From contig JACPKU010000006.1 in the NCBI GenBank assembly GCA_016186915.1, forward strand, positions 173,739-237,738: DNA of 64,000 bases, in the 5' to 3' direction. Positions 15,166-57,863 of the stretch are shown here, in pieces. The first letter of the stretch is position 1. Each line of letters starts with the position of its first letter. The translations under genes were made by a program, and so were the position numbers. Below the pieces are notes generated by a model. It was not told the DNA's origin and searched no databases. It saw only the letters and a program-made list of their open reading frames with translations. This DNA comes from Candidatus Doudnabacteria bacterium (GTDB lineage: Bacteria; Patescibacteriota; Doudnabacteria; UBA920; O2-02-FULL-48-8).

Positions 15166-18129
15166 TTATCTCTCTAAGTCACGAAATTTTTGCTTACCCA
15201 GCTTATTCTTATCAAGTTCGGCAAAGGAATCATGCTTGATCGCCTCTACGATCTGCTCGATTACGCTAAGGATCTTGGCTTTGACTTTTTCGATGTCAGA
15301 TTCTGATCCAACAAATGATTCCGTGTCCCGCAAACTTGCCAAATACCAATATTTCAACGAGTCCACCTTTTCTTTAAATTCTTCCTGGGCCGCCCATTGG
15401 TAAATTAGTAATTGAGTCTTGTCATCGCTCGACAGCTTCTCTTTGACCTGTCCGGTCTTGTAGTCAACAATGCTGATGCTGCCGTTGTTGTTCAAATCCG
15501 CGCGGTCGATTTTGCCGGTGAATTTATAATCGCCCAGCTTCAGCTTAAATTTTTTCTCTAAAAATTTTATAGGCTTTGGGTCTTCCTTGTACCGTTCATA
15601 GAAATTATCCAGCATTTTAGCACCAAGCTTGCGATAGTTTTCTTTTTGAATCGAGTCCTCAAACCAATCATCAACCCAGGAATCCTCATAAAGCTTGAAT
15701 AAAACTTTCTTGTCAGGAATAATTATTTTCCCTGGGCTTTTGCCGAATAAATCCGACTGTTCGGTCTGGTTCGCTTGTTGCGTGGCCAGAAGAAACTTTT
15801 CCAAGGTTTTATGAATAGTAATTCCAAAAGACAGTTGCGCTTCGCCGGGCATCGGCAGATGATAAAGATACTTATATTTATATTCCAGCGGAGAGAACAA
15901 AAAAGAGGCGATTTGAGAGTAAGAAAATGTGTCGGGGACTGGAAGGTTAAAGGCTATAGGTTTTAGGTTATCGGTTGCTTTGCTTTTGTCAGAGAAAAAC
16001 ACTTTGCCCACGGGAGCTGGCTTGGCTGGTGTTTGCTCTAATTTTGCCTCAACTAAAAATTGAGACGGCTTTTTTGTGCTCACTCCTCCATAGTCATTCG
16101 CCCAAGTCAGGTACAAATGCCTTTTGGCGCGCGTGATCGCCACATAAAACAGCCGGCGCTCTTCCATTAAATGCGCGTCGCCTTCTGGCAAAATTTCTCT
16201 AATCAGTGTTTCAGGAATTTCAATCGCGTCTCTTCTTTCCCGGGTGGGAAACCTTTGATCCACCATATTCACTAGGAAAACCGTGTCGAACTCCAGCCCT
16301 TTGGCGGAATGAACAGTCATCACCTTGACCGCCTCCGGCCCCAATTCAGGATTGAAACTAAGCATTCCTTGCTCCCCCGCCTCTTGTTCCAAATCAATTT
16401 GGTTCAAAAAGCTTTTGACTGTCTTTGATTTACTTTCGCTTTCAAATTCCAAAGTCTTCTTATATATTTGCTCAAGCAGGTTCCTGTTTTCCTGGTTCGC
16501 CGCAGAATCCTGCTTTAAACTGTCAACCAAGCCCAGGTCAGTCACCACCCTCACAAAAAATTCCGAAACTGGCGCCGCCAGGCTCAAACGAGAATGTTTT
16601 TCGAGCCGAGCTAGCAATTCGGATATCTTTTTTCGGCTTTCCTGGCTGACCGCAACAAGAGCCGGATCTTTAAGGACCTCTATGATATTATGCGCTTTTC
16701 TCTTCGCTGTTTGTGTCACTTGCACCAGGTCATTGTGCTCCAATTGAAACTTCGGCATAGTCAAAACTCGATAAACATCGGCGTTTTCAAAATGATTGTC
16801 GACTATTCGCAAATACGACAAGACATCCAGAATAAACGGCTTGCGATACAGCCCCCGATTGGCCACGTAAATGTAAGGAATATTCAGACGGTTCAACTCT
16901 ACCAAAAACGGCTCGGCGTGGTCATTGGCCCGAACCAGGATGGCAAAATCATTGTAGGTCACGTCCTGTTTTGATTTAAGTTCCTCAATCTTATTCGCCA
17001 CGAGGCTCGCCTCCTCCGGCAAATTTTGGGCGTGCAGAACTTTGATCTCGCCGGCGACGCGTTCTTTATTTGCGACTAACTTCTTACTTATCTTCAATTT
17101 CGATTCCAGGCGCTCTGGGTTATTCAGCTGAATAAAATTATACGCCAGATCAAGAATTTCCTGACTGGAGCGATAATTTTCTGTGAGCGCGACTTCTGCG
17201 GAAGACGGATAATCTTCTTTGAACTTCAAAATGTTAGACACGGAGGCGCCGCGGAATTTATAAATGGATTGGTCATCGTCCCCCACCACTGTGATGTTGT
17301 TTTCCGGTTTTGCCAAAAGCTTCACCAACTCGTATTGGGAAAGATCGGTGTCTTGAAACTCATCGACCAAAATGTATCTGTATTTTTTCTGATAGTGCGT
17401 GAGAATCTTTGGCCGCGTGCGAAAAAGTTTCAGCGCGTAATTAATCAAATCGCCAAAATCCAGATAGCTATTGTCTAAAAGCAACTTTTGGTATTTATAA
17501 TAAGCATTGGCCACTTCGTTAATCCTAGCGGCCTCATTCTCGTCTTCTTCACTGGCCGCTGTTTTCTTCTTTTTTGATTTTGCTTTCTTCTTAATTTCTG
17601 CTGAATCGAATTTTAGCCTCAAATTTTCCGCATATTTCAAATAATCTTCCGGACTGATCTCTTCCCCTTTAGCTTTGTTAAAATGTTTCAACAAAGTATG
17701 GATAAACTTGTTCGGATTGCCGATAGGCTTATAATAATCCAGATCAAACTCGTGAAGGTGTTTTTTCACTAAGATCCAAGCCTCGGTCTCGGTGATCACT
17801 TTGAAATCTCCGGGCAGCCCAATGTCTAAAGGGTGTTGCTGCAAAATGCGTTGCGCGAACGAATGAAAAGTCGAAATATTAATGTCCACATAACCTAAAG
17901 GCGTGAGTAAATCCACCCTTTCTTCCATTTCAGTCGCCGCTTTTTCGGTAAATGTTAAAGCCAAAATTTCATCTGGCTTGGCAAGCTTCTGTTCAAGCAA
18001 GTAAGCAATACGCCTGGTAATTACCGTGGTTTTTCCCGTTCCAGCGCCGGCAATAATTAAAAGCGGCCCATTACCAAAAGTGACGGCTTCTTCTTGCTCT
18101 TTATTTATTCCCTTAAGTATCTGCGCCAT
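15166..18129 (-). CDS. UvrD/PcrA-family helicase fused to a C-terminal RecB/Cas4-type PD-(D/E)xK nuclease (AddA-like)
   Basis: It has a Walker A (AGAGTGKTTV), UvrD motifs, and a C-terminal GKIDRADLNN...IVDYKTG. The start is taken at MAQILKGINKEQ, since the further-upstream part of the track ORF looks non-coding. Confidence 0.75.
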   Translation of the reverse strand: MAQILKGINKEQEEAVTFGNGPLLIIAGAGTGKTTVITRRIAYLLEQKLAKPDEILALTFTEKAATEMEERVDLLTPLGYVDINISTFHSFAQRILQQHPLDIGLPGDFKVITETEAWILVKKHLHEFDLDYYKPIGNPNKFIHTLLKHFNKAKGEEISPEDYLKYAENLRLKFDSAEIKKKAKSKKKKTAASEEDENEAARINEVANAYYKYQKLLLDNSYLDFGDLINYALKLFRTRPKILTHYQKKYRYILVDEFQDTDLSQYELVKLLAKPENNITVVGDDDQSIYKFRGASVSNILKFKEDYPSSAEVALTENYRSSQEILDLAYNFIQLNNPERLESKLKISKKLVANKERVAGEIKVLHAQNLPEEASLVANKIEELKSKQDVTYNDFAILVRANDHAEPFLVELNRLNIPYIYVANRGLYRKPFILDVLSYLRIVDNHFENADVYRVLTMPKFQLEHNDLVQVTQTAKRKAHNIIEVLKDPALVAVSQESRKKISELLARLEKHSRLSLAAPVSEFFVRVVTDLGLVDSLKQDSAANQENRNLLEQIYKKTLEFESESKSKTVKSFLNQIDLEQEAGEQGMLSFNPELGPEAVKVMTVHSAKGLEFDTVFLVNMVDQRFPTRERRDAIEIPETLIREILPEGDAHLMEERRLFYVAITRAKRHLYLTWANDYGGVSTKKPSQFLVEAKLEQTPAKPAPVGKVFFSDKSKATDNLKPIAFNLPVPDTFSYSQIASFLFSPLEYKYKYLYHLPMPGEAQLSFGITIHKTLEKFLLATQQANQTEQSDLFGKSPGKIIIPDKKVLFKLYEDSWVDDWFEDSIQKENYRKLGAKMLDNFYERYKEDPKPIKFLEKKFKLKLGDYKFTGKIDRADLNNNGSISIVDYKTGQVKEKLSSDDKTQLLIYQWAAQEEFKEKVDSLKYWYLASLRDTESFVGSESDIEKVKAKILSVIEQIVEAIKHDSFAELDKNKLGKQKFRDLER

Positions 18130-18420
18130 ACAGGCATTATAGCATTGCGCATGGTCCTGATGAAATATAAATAAAAAAATATAAATAAAATATAAAAAGC
18201 GTACGTTGACCATTTTCAGCGATCGCTTTTTTTACTCAACGACAACGGAAATAAAATAAACAGCCTTTGGGCATAAACTTAATTAAGCGCCAAAAATATT
18301 ATCCCGGTTAAAACTGTGACCATCGTCACAACAAGCAATACCTCGAAAAAGGTATATCCCCGATAAATTTTGTTTTTTGGTTTCTGTTTGTTCACAAACG
18401 TGTGTATAAATATTATATAA

Positions 18421-36339: not shown

Positions 36340-38565
36340 TCATTTTTTTAATATTGCCAAGAATGCTTCCTGCGGTATATCCACTGAACCGACCCGCTTC
36401 AGCCGCTTTTTGCCTTTCTTCTGTTTTTCCAGAAGTTTCATTTTTCTGGTCACATCGCCGCCATAGAGTTTGGCTGTCACGTCTTTGCGCATGGCGGGTA
36501 TGGTTTCGCGAGCGACTATTTTGGATCCGATCGCGGCCTGCAGCGCCACTTCAAACTGCTGTCGGGGAATCACAGTCTTAAGCTTTTCTACCAGCGACCG
36601 CCCTTCTGATTCAGCCACTTCCTTATGGACGATCAACGACAGCGCGTCCACTTTTTCTTGTGCCACCAGAATGTCCAGTTTAACCAGCTCCGCCTCCCTT
36701 AGATCCAAAAGTTCGTAATTCAGAGAAGCGTAGCCAGAGCTGATACTTTTAAGTTTATCATAAAAATCAATAATGATGTTGGCCAGCGGAATTTCAGCGG
36801 TTATCATCACTCGATCCTCTCTGACGTAGTCAGTATTTTTATAAATCCCACGGCGCGCGGTAATCAGTTCCATCACTCCCCCAATGTATTTTTGTGGAAT
36901 CAAAATTTCCACCAGCACCCATGGTTCCTCCACGCTTTCTATGTGTGACGGATCAGGCAATTCGGCCGGGGTGTGGACGATTTTCGAATCCCCATTTTTT
37001 AAATTCACCTTGTATTCCACGGAAGGAGCGGTCAGAATTAAATCGAGATCGTACTCGCGCGACAGCCGTTCCTGCACAATGTCCATATGCAAAAGCCCCA
37101 AAAATCCCGCTCGGAATCCAAACCCGAGAGCGGGTAAATTTTCTGCCTCAAACTCGAGTGCCGCGTCATTGAGCTTGAGTTTGTCCATTGCGTCTCGAAG
37201 CAGCGGGTAGTCGTCGCCGCTGGTCGGAAAGATGCTCGCATAAACCATGGGTTTGACCTGTTTATACCCGGGCAGTGCTTTCGCTGTATTGCTTGATTGG
37301 AGCGTGGTTACTGTATCTCCTACCCGCGCTTTGCGCACTTCTCGCAAGCCGGTCACAATATAGCCGACCTCTCCTGTTGCCAGCTCAATCGCTGGAAACA
37401 ATTTTGGTTTAAAGAAACCAACTTCCAGAGCCTGCGACTGCGTTTTGGTGCCCAACATTTGGATTTTTTCATTTTTTTTCAACTGTCCGTCAACAATTCT
37501 GACAAATATCACCACCCCGCGGTGTTGATCGTACTTTGAATCAAAAATCAAAGCCCGTAGCGGCTGATCCTCTTTTCCGTTCGGTGAGGGAATCCGAGCC
37601 ACTATCTGCTGTAAGATCTCCTCTACGCCCTCGCCGGTTTTGCCGGAAGCAAACAATATGTCCTCTTTCTTAAACCCAAAAACATTAACGATTTCTGCTG
37701 CCGTCTTTTCGCGCTCGGCATTTGGCAGGTCGATTTTATTAACCACGGGAATAATCTTTAATTTATGCTGCTGGGCCAAATGCACGTTGGCAATTGTCTG
37801 CGCTTCTATGCCTTGCGTGGAGTCAACGACCAAAATCGCTCCTTCACAAGCGGCAAGCGAACGGGAAACTTCGTAAGTAAAATCTACGTGTCCGGGGGTA
37901 TCTATTAAATTCAATACGTACACAGACTCAGGCGGACTGGACGCGGACTGGTCGGAATTTATTAGCCTTTTAATTTCAGCTCCATCAGGTCCAAAATTTA
38001 CAAGTAATGCCAGTTTATGCGGGGTTCCCTTTAAATAATTCCATAATTGTGCTTCTTCTTTTCTACCAATAAGCGGCAATGCTTTGATCTCTAAAATTAT
38101 TTTATTATCAACTAGAAAATCTGGACGGTAAACGCCAACCTTCGCGCCCTTATAAGAAACCGTAATCTCTTTTTCCTGAACAAAGGGTATACTTCTCTGT
38201 TTAAGCTCCAGAGCCAATGCTTTTTGATAGACGTTTTCCTTATGACCGCTTCCAAGCTGTTTCCTAACCTCAAAAATCGCACCTCTAACACTATAACTCA
38301 GGTCTTCATAGAGCAGTCCTTTGTCTGCATTAGTCTGTTTGCTGTCAGCGTTAGTCTGCGGCGGTGTCCACTCCATCCGAACTGGCTGCAGCTTAATAGT
38401 AATCCCCCGCTCGCGCTCCAAATCCATGGTGTCCAAAAGCTGGTCCTTCATCTCCCGTTTGGCCAAAGTGTGCGTCACTTCCAAAAGCCGATCCGCCAGC
38501 GTGGACTTGCCGTGATCAATGTGGGCAATGATGCAAAAATTACGGATTTTTTCTGCTGCAGACAT
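36340..38565 (-). CDS. lepA: Elongation factor 4 (LepA) carrying an in-frame, roughly 140 aa GxxExxY (PD-(D/E)xK superfamily) domain insertion in the G domain
   Basis: LepA blocks are present (IIAHIDHGKSTLADRLL, DTPGHVDFTYEVSRS, the C-terminal LepA_C KMKLLEKQKKGKKRLK). Between GITIKLQPVRMEW and LNLIDTPGH lies an insert reading GAIFEVRKQLGSGHKENVYQKALALEL...YRPDFLVDNKIILEIKA...AQLWNYLK. The start is taken at MSAAEKIRNF, with the RBS GAGGG. Confidence 0.8.
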   Translation of the reverse strand: MSAAEKIRNFCIIAHIDHGKSTLADRLLEVTHTLAKREMKDQLLDTMDLERERGITIKLQPVRMEWTPPQTNADSKQTNADKGLLYEDLSYSVRGAIFEVRKQLGSGHKENVYQKALALELKQRSIPFVQEKEITVSYKGAKVGVYRPDFLVDNKIILEIKALPLIGRKEEAQLWNYLKGTPHKLALLVNFGPDGAEIKRLINSDQSASSPPESVYVLNLIDTPGHVDFTYEVSRSLAACEGAILVVDSTQGIEAQTIANVHLAQQHKLKIIPVVNKIDLPNAEREKTAAEIVNVFGFKKEDILFASGKTGEGVEEILQQIVARIPSPNGKEDQPLRALIFDSKYDQHRGVVIFVRIVDGQLKKNEKIQMLGTKTQSQALEVGFFKPKLFPAIELATGEVGYIVTGLREVRKARVGDTVTTLQSSNTAKALPGYKQVKPMVYASIFPTSGDDYPLLRDAMDKLKLNDAALEFEAENLPALGFGFRAGFLGLLHMDIVQERLSREYDLDLILTAPSVEYKVNLKNGDSKIVHTPAELPDPSHIESVEEPWVLVEILIPQKYIGGVMELITARRGIYKNTDYVREDRVMITAEIPLANIIIDFYDKLKSISSGYASLNYELLDLREAELVKLDILVAQEKVDALSLIVHKEVAESEGRSLVEKLKTVIPRQQFEVALQAAIGSKIVARETIPAMRKDVTAKLYGGDVTRKMKLLEKQKKGKKRLKRVGSVDIPQEAFLAILKK
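37915..38367 (-). other. Inserted GxxExxY nuclease-fold domain within lepA
   Basis: It shows the signature G-H-K-E-N-V-Y and the downstream D...E.K-like blocks of the PDDEXK_3/GxxExxY family. The LepA reading frame continues uninterrupted. Confidence 0.7.
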
Positions 38566-38567
38566 GG

Positions 38568-40187
38568 TTATTCCCTCGTATACCAAGCACTATTAATATT
38601 ACGAGAAAATTTGATGAGCATTGATTTAAGAAGGTTAACCAGACCATGCGTTTCCGCCAGCCCGCTAAACCAGGTTATTCCCAAATAAATCACAAGACCG
38701 ACGAGTGACGCTCCAGCGGCTTGGGTAAACACCCCGACATAGGTCTGCATGTTAACCAGCGGAGCAATCAAATACAAAGATACATAAGCGCCAGCAGCAG
38801 ACAGAGCCGATCCAATCACAATCTTTAAACTATTGATGATCAAGTATTCGTCATGGATGTGACCGATTTTTTTATGCAACTCCATAACTAGCATAACTAA
38901 GTGAATAATACTGGTCAGGGAAAACGCGATCGCCATGCCAGGAATGCCGAATCTTCTGACAAAGAAATAAGTGGCGAAAACATTTACTACGATAACAATA
39001 AGACCAATGATTACCGGGATAGCGGTATTGTGCCGGGCATAAAACGCTCGAGTGAACAAAGGGGCCAGCGCCTGGGCAAACAGGGAGACCACAAATAATC
39101 CGAGTGTTAAAGACACCACGCGCGTATCCGCAAAAGTAAAGCTGGTATTTTCTCCAATTCCCAACACCAACCTGACTATCTGGGCACGCAGAATAAGCAT
39201 CAATACGGACAGCGGAATGATAAAATATAAAATCTGAATCGTGGTTCTGGCGAGAACATCCTTAAATTTTTGATCGTCGCGCTGGTTGAAGTATTCCGAC
39301 AAGGTTGGAAAAACCGCAATGGCGGCCGAGATGGCAAAAATGCTTAAAAACACCGCCTGCAAATTGTTAGCGTAATAAAAGACCGACAACGAGCCGGTGC
39401 CTAAGAACGATCCAAAAATCGTGGCCACCAAAAGGGTCACCTGGCTGGTGCCCATGGAAAAAATCCTTGGCCAATACAATTTCCAAAATTGGATGAATCC
39501 GGAGTCACGCAGCGCCAGCACCAAGGAATAACGGAAGCCCATAAAAAACACTTGCGGTAGTTGAATGAGAAAATGCAGGAGAGCTCCGATAACCACGCCG
39601 ATGGGCAAACCTATTGGTCCCATGATCGGATACAACACCAGCACGCCAAATATAATGGACAAGTTATAAACCAAAGGCGCCGCGGCAACCACTGCAAATT
39701 TTTTATAGGTATGGAGAATGCTGGAAGTGATCGAGGAAAGGGACAGAAACAGAGGAGAAAAAAGCAAAATCTTGGTAAAACTTCTGGTCAGTTCATAAGC
39801 TTCACCAGTAAATCCCGGGGCAATAACCCTAACCAGCGGATCGATAAATAAAAGCGCGAACAAGGATATGCCAATCACTCCAAAAATCGTGCTGTTCGCA
39901 ATACCTGACGCGATCCGAAAAGCCCGGTCTCGATCTTTAAACAAGTAGTCGGAAAATACCGGAATAAATGCCACTGACACGGTGCCCAAAAAAAGCAGAT
40001 TAAAAATAAAGTCCGGAATCCGGAAAGCCGCGAAATAGGCGTCGATCAAAACACTGGTCCCGAACCGGTTGGAAAACACCGCGTCCCGAATAAGCCCCGA
40101 GAATTTGGCCAAGAGCGAAAAAACCGCGATGATCACGGTTGCTTTGGTAAGCGAATCAGATTTAGTATTCAACAACCTGGCAATCAT
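38568..40187 (-). CDS. murJ: Lipid II flippase MurJ (MviN)
   Basis: It is a 539 aa protein with 14 transmembrane segments. Its N-terminus reads ...ATVIIAVFSLLAKFSGLIRDAVFSNRFGTS. Confidence 0.8.
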   Translation of the reverse strand: MIARLLNTKSDSLTKATVIIAVFSLLAKFSGLIRDAVFSNRFGTSVLIDAYFAAFRIPDFIFNLLFLGTVSVAFIPVFSDYLFKDRDRAFRIASGIANSTIFGVIGISLFALLFIDPLVRVIAPGFTGEAYELTRSFTKILLFSPLFLSLSSITSSILHTYKKFAVVAAAPLVYNLSIIFGVLVLYPIMGPIGLPIGVVIGALLHFLIQLPQVFFMGFRYSLVLALRDSGFIQFWKLYWPRIFSMGTSQVTLLVATIFGSFLGTGSLSVFYYANNLQAVFLSIFAISAAIAVFPTLSEYFNQRDDQKFKDVLARTTIQILYFIIPLSVLMLILRAQIVRLVLGIGENTSFTFADTRVVSLTLGLFVVSLFAQALAPLFTRAFYARHNTAIPVIIGLIVIVVNVFATYFFVRRFGIPGMAIAFSLTSIIHLVMLVMELHKKIGHIHDEYLIINSLKIVIGSALSAAGAYVSLYLIAPLVNMQTYVGVFTQAAGASLVGLVIYLGITWFSGLAETHGLVNLLKSMLIKFSRNINSAWYTRE

Positions 40188-55331: not shown

Positions 55332-57863
55332 TTATCCTGTCCTTTCAGTGGATGCAATACCGCTTTTTACAGGCGAGCCGAGTCGAGTACGCCTTAAAAT
55401 TTCTTCTTCTACCTCGGACTTGGGACGTCCGTATTTTAACTTGGAAAGATTCTTGATTGTTTGAGCCACTCGCGGATCGCCTTGAGTCGGTTTCGGATAA
55501 GTTTCCATGCTGAAAGGGCGGGACGCGGTGCCGTCAATCATAAGTTTGACGTAAGCATTGTATCTGTCAATATTGACAACATCAAATTCGTTAAACACCG
55601 GAGCAAACTCCTTGCCCATAATTTCCGCATCCTCTACCCCGATGCGAAAAGTAATCATAGTGCCGGCATTGCCAAACACCGCGTCTCGCATCCGGCTGTC
55701 CAAAGTATTGCTTCCTTCTTTTTCTGTGGTGAGCTGGGAAATAAACTGATGGGCCATAATCAAATCCAGCCGATATTTTCTGGCCTCAGACAAAATCGTG
55801 GCAAAGCTGTCTGTGACAAAATTTTGAAACTCATCCACATACAGATAGAAGTCCCGTCTTTGATCTTCCGGCTGATCAGCGCGCGACATCGCCGCCATCT
55901 GGAGCTTAGAAACGACAATCAACCCCAAAAGTTTGGCGTTGACCTCGCCGGTCTTGCCTTTGGAAAGGTTGATCAGCAATATCTTGCCTTCATCCATGAC
56001 CTTGCGGAAATCAAACGAGCTGGTGGGCTGGCCGATGATGTTGCGCATCATTTCGTTTTCCACAAATCTGCCGACTTTGGAAATCAAATACCCCAACATT
56101 TCGGACTTGTGAAAGTCCGAAGTTTTCGCCATTTCTTTTTCCCAAAACGCCCGCACCACTGGATCTTGAACTTTCGAAAGCTTGTAGCGCTGAAAAGCGG
56201 TGTCTGTAAACATCCTAGGGATATCCGCGATGGTTCCCGGATTTTGTTTGTCTTCCAAAAGCGTGAGCATGACGTTGCGCATATTATGCTCAAACATCGG
56301 CCCAATCATTTCCGGCGGGAACAGCTTATAAAAAATCGAGATCATTTCCTGAATTACGAAATCTTTTTGCTCCGCTCCTTTGGCTTCCAGCATATTAAGC
56401 CCCACCGGCCGATCAAGATCAAACGGTTCAAACAAAATCACGTCGTCCGCGCGCTCTTTGGGGATGTATGAAAGCAGGTCGTCCACCAGATCGCCGTGCG
56501 GATCCACCACGCACAACCCTTCGCCTTGGCGAATGTCCTGAATCGCCAGGTTTTTCATCAGTTCGGTTTTGCCCGTCCCAGTGCGGCCAATAATATACAT
56601 GTGTCTTCTACGGTCATCGTGTTTGATGTACACTTTTGTCTCCACTCCGCGGTAAAGGCTTTTGCCCAAAAGCAATCCTTCCTCCGGCAGATTATGAGGC
56701 GGCACGCCCTTTTTTGAACCCAGCCACTTGATATGCGGCGTTTCCGTGAATCGGGTTGGCAAATGCCAGATGCTGGCCAGTTCTTCGGTGTTCAGGATTT
56801 CCCTGCTTCCCCGAAAAATCCGAAAAATAAAATCAGTCACCACCCGCTTAACTGGTTTATGTTTGACCTTAAATCCGTTAAACGGCGGCATGGAATATTG
56901 CATAAACGAGGAGAGAATGTTTTTCAGATGCGCCTGCGCCGCTCCCTCACTGCTCGAAGAGGCGACTAATCTTAAATTATACGTAAACCCGGCTCGCGAG
57001 GCTTTTTCCTCAAAACGTTTGACAATCTCCTGCTGCATCGGGGTGAGCGTCAGAGGTTTTTGCCTTGAGTTTTGTGGCAAAAGGTCTGTTTGGCTTTTCT
57101 TTTTTCCGGACAGCAATTCGTTAAACGCGTTTCCTAAAACATCAAAAGTATTTAAAACAAATTTTTGGCTGCCGCTGGCTGTAACTCTGCCCGGATCCTT
57201 GCCCTGTTGTATCTGCGAAGCCAAGCGCCTGGGTTTTGCCTGCCAGTTGCTGCCCGCGGGGCTGATAATCAGTTGAATTGCCGCCCCTTCATCCTCGGTC
57301 AACTTGGAGAGGCTGTTGGTTAAAGAATTGAGCGGGTCGGTTTCTGTCTCTTTGTAAGTGCGGATAGGAAAAATGTAGTTTTTCTGCAGTCCCAGCTCCA
57401 CGGCCGCCACTGCAGAGTCCGGTTTAAAAAGTTTGTATGGTTTGATCGTTTCTATCTGGGCAGTTGGATATTGCGCGTGCAGTTGTTTTTCAATCAATGC
57501 TTGAAGTTTCTTTGGTACATTCAAATAAAACGAAATTTTCTTGCCAACTGCCGCAATCTCCAAGCTGATATTCTCATTAATGCCCAAAAGACGGTTGAGG
57601 TCTCCTTTTTCCCTGACATCCGCAATGGTTGTAAAAAATTGCTCAGCAATGCTGATTACGTCCTTCTCTTCTTTTTTAGGATCATTGTCCTTTGCCTCGC
57701 TTTCTTTGGGAACCTGCACCTCCAAAAACACAGAATTTTTTATTCGGGGCACCCAGCCTTTTTTGCGCGTAGATTCCTCAATTAAAAAATACAAAAGCAG
57801 GCCGACCAAAATAAGTATGGCGACTAATAACAACCAGAAAAAAACAATGGCGGCACTAGACAT
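55332..57863 (-). CDS. Membrane-anchored TraD/TraG/VirD4-family (type IV coupling-protein-like, FtsK/HerA-class) P-loop ATPase
   Basis: It has an N-terminal transmembrane segment, a Walker A (HMYIIGRTGTGKTELMKN), a Walker B (FYLYVDEFQNF) and a TraD-like C-terminus. It is 843 aa. Confidence 0.6.
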   Translation of the reverse strand: MSSAAIVFFWLLLVAILILVGLLLYFLIEESTRKKGWVPRIKNSVFLEVQVPKESEAKDNDPKKEEKDVISIAEQFFTTIADVREKGDLNRLLGINENISLEIAAVGKKISFYLNVPKKLQALIEKQLHAQYPTAQIETIKPYKLFKPDSAVAAVELGLQKNYIFPIRTYKETETDPLNSLTNSLSKLTEDEGAAIQLIISPAGSNWQAKPRRLASQIQQGKDPGRVTASGSQKFVLNTFDVLGNAFNELLSGKKKSQTDLLPQNSRQKPLTLTPMQQEIVKRFEEKASRAGFTYNLRLVASSSSEGAAQAHLKNILSSFMQYSMPPFNGFKVKHKPVKRVVTDFIFRIFRGSREILNTEELASIWHLPTRFTETPHIKWLGSKKGVPPHNLPEEGLLLGKSLYRGVETKVYIKHDDRRRHMYIIGRTGTGKTELMKNLAIQDIRQGEGLCVVDPHGDLVDDLLSYIPKERADDVILFEPFDLDRPVGLNMLEAKGAEQKDFVIQEMISIFYKLFPPEMIGPMFEHNMRNVMLTLLEDKQNPGTIADIPRMFTDTAFQRYKLSKVQDPVVRAFWEKEMAKTSDFHKSEMLGYLISKVGRFVENEMMRNIIGQPTSSFDFRKVMDEGKILLINLSKGKTGEVNAKLLGLIVVSKLQMAAMSRADQPEDQRRDFYLYVDEFQNFVTDSFATILSEARKYRLDLIMAHQFISQLTTEKEGSNTLDSRMRDAVFGNAGTMITFRIGVEDAEIMGKEFAPVFNEFDVVNIDRYNAYVKLMIDGTASRPFSMETYPKPTQGDPRVAQTIKNLSKLKYGRPKSEVEEEILRRTRLGSPVKSGIASTERTG

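Follow-up and report, generated by a model that had tools for sequence, protein, structure and literature searches.

The lepA gene, encoding elongation factor 4 (EF4), of a 64,000-nt stretch of Candidatus Doudnabacteria bacterium contig JACPKU010000006.1 (hereafter the window) carries within its reading frame a nuclease domain of the GxxExxY / PDDEXK_3 family. We consider it probable, at roughly 0.6, that this insert is a complete copy of a selfish, nuclease-encoding element flanked by inverted repeats, which makes its home in tolerant loops encoded by conserved genes and is translated within the host protein. The first-pass annotation, made from the sequence of the window, had left the choice between a domesticated selfish element and a new regulatory module. 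Since the same element with its inverted-repeat flanks was found in the unrelated proteins RecG, leucyl-tRNA synthetase (LeuRS), SecA and a GT2 glycosyltransferase, and since it is patchy among close relatives, the evidence favours a selfish element over a module specific to LepA. That annotation had overlooked that the flanks of the nuclease (QTNAD repeats and SASSP) are the DNA inverted repeats of the element, that the insert is not unique to this genome and that its hosts extend beyond translation GTPases.

The nuclease domain inserted in LepA

The lepA coding sequence, as defined by the list of open reading frames (ORFs), TIGR01393 and Pfam, occupies positions 36340..38565 of the minus strand (741 aa plus stop). 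It is a single ORF without interruption, in agreement with the earlier view that the frame is continuous and not the product of a frameshift. The likely start is the ATG at 38565, immediately past the murJ stop; the listed ORF reaches the TTG at 38586. When the protein was aligned with insert-free orthologues (RMEW-HG/KG-YILNL), the limits of the whole inserted element were placed at T67 and V215, corresponding to 447 nt or 149 codons at 37921..38367 (minus strand) that are free of stops in the lepA frame. The location of the domain had been recognized correctly at first, whereas the size of about 140 aa and the range of residues 74-225 given for it had to be replaced by these values. The insert is located at the tip of the beta2-beta3 hairpin, between W66 at the end of beta2 (LQPVRMEW66) and Y216 at the beginning of beta3 (Y216VLNLIDTPGH), and thus lies between the GITIK and DTPGH motifs. 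The usual LepA hairpin at this site has 10-11 residues, which agrees with the 11 assumed previously, and the closest insert-free Doudnabacteria LepAs have 6.

The GxxExxY / PD-(D/E)xK nuclease core extends from L84 to N203 (37957..38316, minus strand). Pfam PF13366 (PDDEXK_3) matched residues 88-200 with E=1.9e-33 (115.7 bits against a cut-off of 22; profile positions 2-116 of 117), and TIGR04256 (GxxExxY) matched residues 89-202 with E=1.7e-34 (118.7 bits against a cut-off of 35; positions 2-116 of 116). The family assignment proposed for the region between switch I and G3 was therefore borne out over nearly the whole profile. The catalytic motifs were found as G107-H-K-E110-N-V-Y113, P148-D149 and E159-I-K161, with E110, D149, E159 and K161 all retained. 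The element has neither a start nor a stop codon of its own and is therefore translated as an internal domain of LepA.

No relative of the insert with a solved structure was detectable by sequence, and fold searches were therefore used. The insert was predicted to have a restriction-endonuclease-like alpha/beta fold. AlphaFold2 (AF2) modelling of the insert alone, with 117 relatives as the alignment, gave a predicted local distance difference test score (pLDDT) above 96 for the core and disordered ends. In the AF2 model of full-length LepA, the pLDDT of the nuclease core was ~80-87, strands beta2 (62-66) and beta3 (216-221) were kept, and the linkers at residues 71-85 and 205-212 had pLDDT below 50. 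As modelled, the insert is an autonomous PD-(D/E)xK domain on two disordered linkers, held away from an otherwise intact G domain. PADLOC gave no match that would link the insert to a defence system, and a search of PHROGs gave only a weak 'endonuclease' match (E=0.003).

The host protein is complete on both sides of the insert. Residues 1-66 (38368..38565, minus strand) comprise the G1 P-loop (AHIDHGKS, 14-21), switch I/G2 (RGITIK, 53-58) and strand beta2 (59-66), as judged from the motif positions, the AF2 strand (E) at 62-66 and the alignment to residues 7-68 of solved EF4. Residues 216-741 (36343..37920, minus strand) comprise beta3 and G3 (YVLNLIDTPGH), G4 (NKID), G5 (SGKTG), domains II, III and V and the LepA C-terminal domain, as assigned from Pfam, the motifs and the solved EF4 chains. 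All five motifs, G1 to G5, are intact (G3 as DTPGH). The NCBIfam equivalog TIGR01393 (lepA) scored 899 bits against a cut-off of 533.9, with its match broken in two at the insert, and Pfam identified GTP_EFTU (in two stretches), GTP_EFTU_D2, EFG_C (E=3e-21) and LepA_C (E=2.5e-48). The solved EF4 chains 5imq, 4w2e and 3cb4 aligned with the protein from end to end (E ~1e-200), and the solved entries also include EF4-70S structures (3jce, 5j8b and 4w2e).

The window LepA is 100% identical to P0001, 'elongation factor 4 [Candidatus Doudnabacteria bacterium]', which is recorded on 3 contigs. P0002, an insert-bearing orthologue with 75% identity to the window LepA, was seen on 24 contigs and is indexed in 33 collection blocks. 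The chromosomal neighbourhood (DUF4012, MurJ, LepA, DivIC and rotamase) is conserved, and the combination of LepA and insert recurs in dozens of independent assemblies.

Flanking repeats, host genes and distribution of the element

The left flank and linker (TPPQTNADSKQTNADKG; 38317..38367, minus strand) is a tandem 21-nt repeat with a CAGACTAA(C/T)GC(T/A)GAC motif, and the right flank and linker (SDQSASSPPESV; 37921..37956, minus strand) is a tandem 11-nt repeat (GCGGACTGGAC/GCGGACTGGTC, plus strand). The left flank contains the direct repeat D1 (38322-38358) and an inverted-repeat arm at 38332-38358; the right flank contains the direct repeat D7 (37932-37953) and an arm at 37923-37949. These two 27-nt arms are 70% complementary. 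The flank-flank duplex energy of the window copy was no better than that of shuffled sequences (z=-1.1), and the window repeats are therefore described as decayed left and right inverted repeats of the family. Three LepA orthologues had a strong flank-flank duplex with z of -5.8 to -7.3 relative to shuffles, and the flank complementarity of 68 inserted loci had a median z of -4.2, with z<-2 in 91% of them. The repeat motif co-varies across the two sides, CGCGGA(C/T/A) on the left with (G/A/T)TCCGCG on the right, an indication that the nucleotides and not the peptide are selected.

Flanks derived from the repeats were common to every inserted copy. At the peptide level, every inserted copy and many free-standing ones have (Q)T(N/D)(A/T)D repeats, and the free-standing GxxExxY proteins, which are 50-60% identical to the insert, have N-terminal xINAD/xTNAD tandem repeats and C-terminal PRKSA/RESA-type repeats. 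Judged from these sequence comparisons, the flank peptides TPPQTNADSKQTNADKG and SDQSASSPPESV belong to the element and are not LepA sequence. The free-standing copies also have equivalent DNA repeats, and their stop codon precedes the right repeat, 27-45 nt past the core in most and 63-84 nt past it in two. When several junctions were checked by eye for a target-site duplication, they were found to lie between two Tyr codons; the ends themselves are palindromic (TATAC / GTGTAC), so a duplication would be indistinguishable from host sequence.

Some individual copies departed from this arrangement. In the right flank of locus L022, the right-type repeats are preceded by an additional left-type repeat (TNADETQNHTE), which gives the impression of a nested second repeat pair without an ORF. 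Four tandem 'SPQLSAS' units were found in the flank of locus L014, and repeat copy number is therefore unstable. The 778-aa LepA P0242 contains the full element at the hairpin and in addition a short 'SQTNADVKTRTYADN' before RALIFD, between the G domain and domain II; this peptide resembles a solo left-flank repeat and may be a footprint or an ORF-less derivative. Four free-standing copies, L075, L080, L083 and L087 (Thermodesulfovibrionia and related records), are located directly upstream of the same gene start (GGAGG...ATGAACGATAC, 'MNDTF...') and thus occupy a conserved intergenic position, not a random one.

One genome per species (GTDB) was scanned with a profile of the insert. The 80 loci retained, which were the best 80 of 206 matches to one conserved peptide pattern, came mostly from records titled Patescibacteria or Candidate Phyla Radiation (CPR). 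The domain was in frame inside a long ORF at 69 of them, and the host frame was open on both sides in all 69 although the flank lengths vary. According to Pfam and motif checks, the hosts were RecG (40), LepA (22), class-I aminoacyl-tRNA synthetases (4), SecA (1), a GT2 glycosyltransferase (1) and an unknown ORF (1). Three of the four synthetases were LeuRS, with the insert just ahead of VFTTRPDT, and the fourth was a Val/Ile-type synthetase. The site was constant in the 40 RecG copies, between motif II (DEQHRFGV.QR) and motif III (PH.L.MTATPIPRT), and all 22 LepA loci had the insert at the hairpin site. In the tree of nuclease cores, the inserted copies formed a clade apart from most free-standing ones, and copies from different host genes were intermixed inside this clade. 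A protein search with a profile of the inserted copies recovered mainly short free-standing proteins and LepA fragments, and the long hosts did not surface.

The unknown ORF is an 862-aa open frame at L031:1918-4503 (metagenome-assembled genome (MAG) 'bacterium isolate clean1841') with two GxxExxY domains, of which the first is divergent and the second typical and fully flanked; Pfam recognised nothing else in it. Nine loci (L012, L016, L026, L036, L037, L068, L032, L042 and L029) come from records titled 'uncultured Bdellovibrionales', 'Gammaproteobacteria' or 'Nanoarchaeota'. In several of these (e.g. L012, L016, L026 and L029) the host RecG or LepA and the insert clustered with Patescibacteria loci, and the MAG labels look unreliable. 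Furthermore, P0391, P0400 and similar entries are N-terminal LepA fragments with the insert that are named 'GxxExxY protein, partial' at NCBI; on short contigs, lepA is thus misannotated because of the element.

Many CPR lineages have the insert at the identical LepA site. With LepA residues 1-300 as the query, the LepA G domain and the insert were combined in only 7 of 1.84e9 cluster representatives, all of them LepA with the same site, and the scores then fell sharply to insert-free sequences. The insert was present in 8 of the 120 best full-length matches, and the insert-free ones (~110 of 120) include the closest, at 84-85% identity. In the alignment with relatives suggested in the first-pass annotation, exactly one site was used by all insert-bearing LepAs, and most close relatives cleanly lacked the insert. 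An exactly 6-aa hairpin was found in 92 insert-free LepAs in a set of 109. In a tree of the host sequence only, insert-bearing LepAs were scattered among insert-free ones, a pattern that requires 6 or more gains or, alternatively, 9 or more precise losses at a single position.

The same position also receives other sequences. Nine other CPR LepAs (P0250, P0253, P0255, P0256, P0259, P0283, P0354, P0356 and P0116) contain unrelated, low-complexity, repeat-derived peptides of 26-58 aa at the same hairpin tip (66/216), e.g. 'IPNSKSQIPNKFQ...FGASNLEL', with the look of palindromic repeat elements that are translated, and P0250 has a second repeat-derived peptide at the linker between the G domain and domain II. 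In-frame insertions of repeats seem to concentrate at the hairpin tip and at this linker, and on account of these unrelated peptides both are regarded as permissive sites. The 289-aa LepA fragment P0249 is identical to P0002 over ~185 residues from ILLVDATQG on and 78% identical over the N-terminal 65 residues, and has an insert-free 15-aa hairpin; it is either a natural recombinant in which the insert-bearing segment was replaced or a chimeric contig. In the LepA subclade P0002-P0004 a second insertion of 10-12 aa ('KNARLAEDGESRRG' in one version) was seen in the domain III/V region (alignment columns ~560-572), which is absent from the window protein and other relatives.

Selection, spread and alternative explanations

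The catalytic residues (GxxExxY motif and PD...(D/E)xK) were kept in all 87 inserted copies and all 11 free-standing ones examined; in the inserted ones this held for E, D, ExK and Q alike. Where synonymous divergence was measurable, the ratio of nonsynonymous to synonymous divergence (dN/dS) of the core was 0.04-0.26, similar to that of the host genes. The inserted copies are under purifying selection.

In several pairs the element was much more similar than its host. For the recG pair L018/L019 the core dS was 0.075 compared to a host dS of 1.51, and nucleotide identity was 0.92-1.00 over the insert and its flanks but 0.65-0.88 for most of the host gene, save two short conserved stretches at 0.90-0.98. 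For L038/L039 the core dS was 0.029 and the host dS 0.335, and in the lepA pair L014/L024 the cores were 86% identical while the hosts were 58% identical. Over 21 LepA loci the mean core identity (0.62) exceeded the mean host identity (0.50), and the two were nearly uncorrelated (rho=0.13). The nearest neighbour by core was also the nearest by host at only 8 of 21 LepA loci and 13 of 39 RecG loci.

In its layout, the element is a ~120-aa GxxExxY PD-(D/E)xK nuclease ORF bounded by a left and a right inverted repeat. These data suggest that it would persist as inteins do, by residence in conserved essential genes, and harm to the host would be avoided by tolerant surface loops and flexible linkers instead of splicing. 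Nuclease-dependent copying into an empty allele, either by homing or by gene conversion after DNA exchange, would be the most likely route of spread, and new genes would now and then be reached by a jump. The repeats would act as the ends of the element or as a DNA or RNA stem; classical homing does not explain their conservation, which would be compatible with a transposon-like mechanism or with a part played in precise loss. More tentatively, and with slightly less than even odds in our judgement, GxxExxY elements may form a distinct class of selfish DNA that could be called 'splicing-free inteins': PD-(D/E)xK genes flanked by inverted repeats and devoid of start and stop, located in permissive loops beside the most conserved motifs of essential CPR genes (lepA, recG, leuS, secA and others), expressed only as a domain of the host protein and spreading through cleavage of empty alleles, into which they are then copied. 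With this reading, the large and uncharacterised GxxExxY/PDDEXK_3 family would gain its first function.

Several points weigh against a selfish element. Inverted repeats are not needed by classical homing endonuclease genes, and the mechanism may therefore be transposition-like. It is unusual for an endonuclease that is purely selfish to conserve its catalytic residues in full, and this could indicate that the host benefits. Selection of the best matches to a single peptide pattern under-samples decayed copies and the true spread of core identity, cross-assembly of a shared repeat could account for part of the low dS between MAGs, and the trees were computed by neighbour joining, with no support values. 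For Doudnabacteria, insert and host branch in roughly the same way, and the divergence of the window insert is close to that of its LepA (73% identity for the insert and 77% for the host). No empty allele with near-identical flanks was found for the window lepA when JGI metagenome contigs were searched with a degenerate junction pattern, and the exact downstream tag of the P0002 lepA led to one contig, which was insert-bearing, and to no empty allele; there is therefore no direct presence/absence polymorphism. No biochemical data on any member of the GxxExxY family were found, and the family is listed as function unknown in the only published classification found (PMC3424549). The window copy has probably long been part of the lepA lineage of Doudnabacteria and been passed on vertically, with its repeats largely decayed and its nuclease intact.

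The main rival to a selfish element is an exapted module, a former mobile element that would now serve its host by cutting or binding RNA or DNA at the ribosome via LepA, by dimerising or regulating its hosts, or by scavenging nucleic acids in nucleotide-auxotrophic bacteria. The complete set of catalytic residues in the inserted copies and a core dN/dS as low as that of the host genes are in its favour, as is the Doudnabacteria lineage, in which the branching of the insert follows that of LepA and most of the repeat complementarity of the window copy is gone although its nuclease is kept; moreover, the interswitch hairpin of a GTPase could couple the domain to the nucleotide state. However, most close LepA relatives do without the insert, the functionally unrelated hosts speak against a role specific to LepA, the linkers are disordered and variable in length with no designed interface, and the signatures of horizontal transfer suit an element better than a host module. 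We regard exaptation as unlikely, though it is the strongest competitor. Somewhat less probable again is that the repeats themselves are the mobile part of a palindromic element similar to a transposon or a miniature inverted-repeat transposable element (MITE), moved by another enzyme or by replication or recombination, with the GxxExxY ORF as cargo and only in-frame loop insertions surviving. Conserved, co-varying inverted repeats with tandem sub-motifs surround every copy, inserted or free-standing, and ORF-less repeat peptides at the same LepA sites in other CPR genomes, the extra solo repeat sets in P0242 and L022, the between-gene jumps implied by the mixing of hosts on the core tree and the precedent of in-frame palindromic elements in Rickettsia protein genes (PMC10969869) all agree with such a passenger. 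Random insertion, on the other hand, accounts neither for the strong conservation of the nuclease nor for the use of a single exact site in each of RecG (40 copies), LepA (22 copies) and LeuRS (3 copies). Furthermore, no target-site duplication was recognisable by eye at the several junctions inspected, and a tblastn search of the 64-kb window with the insert found no other GxxExxY insert besides the lepA copy. The element, being filled by a conserved nuclease ORF, differs from MITEs, which are non-autonomous and have no enzyme ORF.

Removal of the insert as an intein, a group I/II intron or by some other excision at the RNA level, leaving mature LepA without it, is very improbable. Like inteins, the element is patchily distributed and occupies conserved sites of essential genes, and the repeats could form an RNA stem that unites the junctions. 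The first-pass annotation had already argued against an intein, and this was upheld: no Hint or intein Pfam match was found at E<=0.01, the insert extends beyond the nuclease core by only 17 and 12 residues, and there is no terminal His-Asn, since the insert ends with ...PPESV before Tyr216. The +1 residue is Tyr or Val and not Cys, Ser or Thr, and the junction residues vary in 8 aligned orthologues, none of which has His-Asn. As for introns, an Rfam scan of the window at the gathering threshold gave 7 tRNAs only and no intron family, the ~90 nt outside the ORF core are too short for a ribozyme, and the host frame is kept in all 69 inserted loci despite variable flanks, which RNA splicing would not demand. 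An artefact of sequencing or assembly, or a pseudogene, is hardly credible. The source is indeed a metagenome-assembled genome, but the architecture is present in independent assemblies (P0002 on its 24 contigs and dozens of species), the frame, GTPase motifs and domains are intact, synteny is conserved and the gene shows purifying selection.

If the selfish-element reading is true, a selfish element that encodes a nuclease can inhabit essential genes with neither protein splicing nor RNA splicing, which would make GxxExxY elements a third solution, and a role could be assigned to the widespread GxxExxY/PDDEXK_3 family. Protein-coding genes would join rRNA and tRNA genes as CPR targets of mobile nucleases, and the inserts would be a systematic source of oversized 'housekeeping' proteins and of misannotation in CPR genomes. 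The naturally permissive insertion sites in LepA, RecG, SecA and LeuRS would be usable for protein engineering, and the putative site-specific nucleases would be potentially useful reagents. The natural LepA variants with a 15-kDa domain on the interswitch hairpin also offer a test of how important that face of the G domain is on the ribosome.

The rest of the window is an ordinary CPR chromosome, including gyrB, dnaX and an ATP synthase alpha/beta-family subunit. It also contains an AddA/UvrD-type helicase with a C-terminal PDDEXK_1 nuclease (15166-18213, minus strand), a TrwB/VirD4-like type IV coupling protein (55332-57863, minus strand) and a cluster of three tRNAs (21331-21692, minus strand).

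Comparison with known in-frame and homing elements

Inteins with a homing endonuclease are alike in being in-frame inserts that are translated with an essential host protein and adjoin its most conserved motifs; the element described here does so just ahead of DTPGH in LepA and, in RecG, between helicase motifs II and III. Inteins likewise use one fixed site per host gene, are sporadic among relatives, leave clean empty sites and show signs of horizontal transfer. Unlike inteins, the LepA insert lacks a Hint domain and splice residues and so must remain in the mature protein; its nuclease is a minimal PD-(D/E)xK enzyme, not LAGLIDADG or HNH, and its inverted-repeat ends are absent from inteins. 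Homing endonuclease elements in general also share a site in a conserved gene, sporadic presence and clean empty alleles. The divergence decoupled from the host that is expected of them was seen in the pairs L018/L019, L038/L039 and L014/L024, whereas the window copy tracks its host.

Rickettsia palindromic elements (RPEs) are in-frame palindromic inserts in unrelated housekeeping genes that are read through at positions compatible with the protein fold (PMC10969869). The element described here resembles RPEs and intragenic MITEs in its palindromic, in-frame insertion, with the translated repeats serving as disordered linkers in a surface hairpin. RPEs differ in being ~150 bp long and encoding only a short conserved peptide, compared to ~450 bp with a folded, selected nuclease domain in LepA, and the LepA-type element occurs at one exact recurrent site per host gene across phylum-level distances. 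The ShiLan insertion in a phage methylase is an in-frame, non-splicing insert with a hidden, out-of-frame HNH endonuclease (PMC11855218). It shares intein-like evolution, the lack of a detectable splicing domain or intron, a stop-free host frame and a prediction that it loops out of the host protein (PMC11855218). In ShiLan the endonuclease needs separate translation, while the LepA nuclease is in frame and made only as a LepA domain; moreover, the nuclease families differ, and the ShiLan host is a phage gene while the present hosts are cellular CPR genes.

Free-standing GxxExxY proteins (TIGR04256 / PF13366) are the closest counterparts in sequence, sharing the domain, the xINAD/xTNAD and PRKSA-type repeats and the flanking inverted repeats in DNA. 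They have their own start and stop, whereas the inserted clade has neither and reads into the host on each side. In CPR bacteria, rRNA insertions and introns encode LAGLIDADG homing endonucleases and have spread both vertically and horizontally (PMC11270868). These are mobile, nuclease-encoding inserts in highly conserved genes of the same organisms, but they are located in rRNA and tRNA genes, are mostly self-splicing introns and use LAGLIDADG or GIY-YIG enzymes (PMC11270868). PDDEXK_3 is not mentioned in the text of that paper, whose subject was not protein-coding hosts (PMC11270868). A survey of ribosome-biogenesis factors reported that LepA is retained in CPR and does not mention the insert in its main text (PMC12641178). 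In the searchable literature GxxExxY/PDDEXK_3 appears only as 'function unknown' (PMC3424549), and a literature search on GxxExxY/PDDEXK_3, LepA/RecG, Patescibacteria and in-frame inserts found no description of such inserts. The inserts come closest to the known selfish in-frame insertions and homing elements, and they extend to a whole family and to several essential genes.

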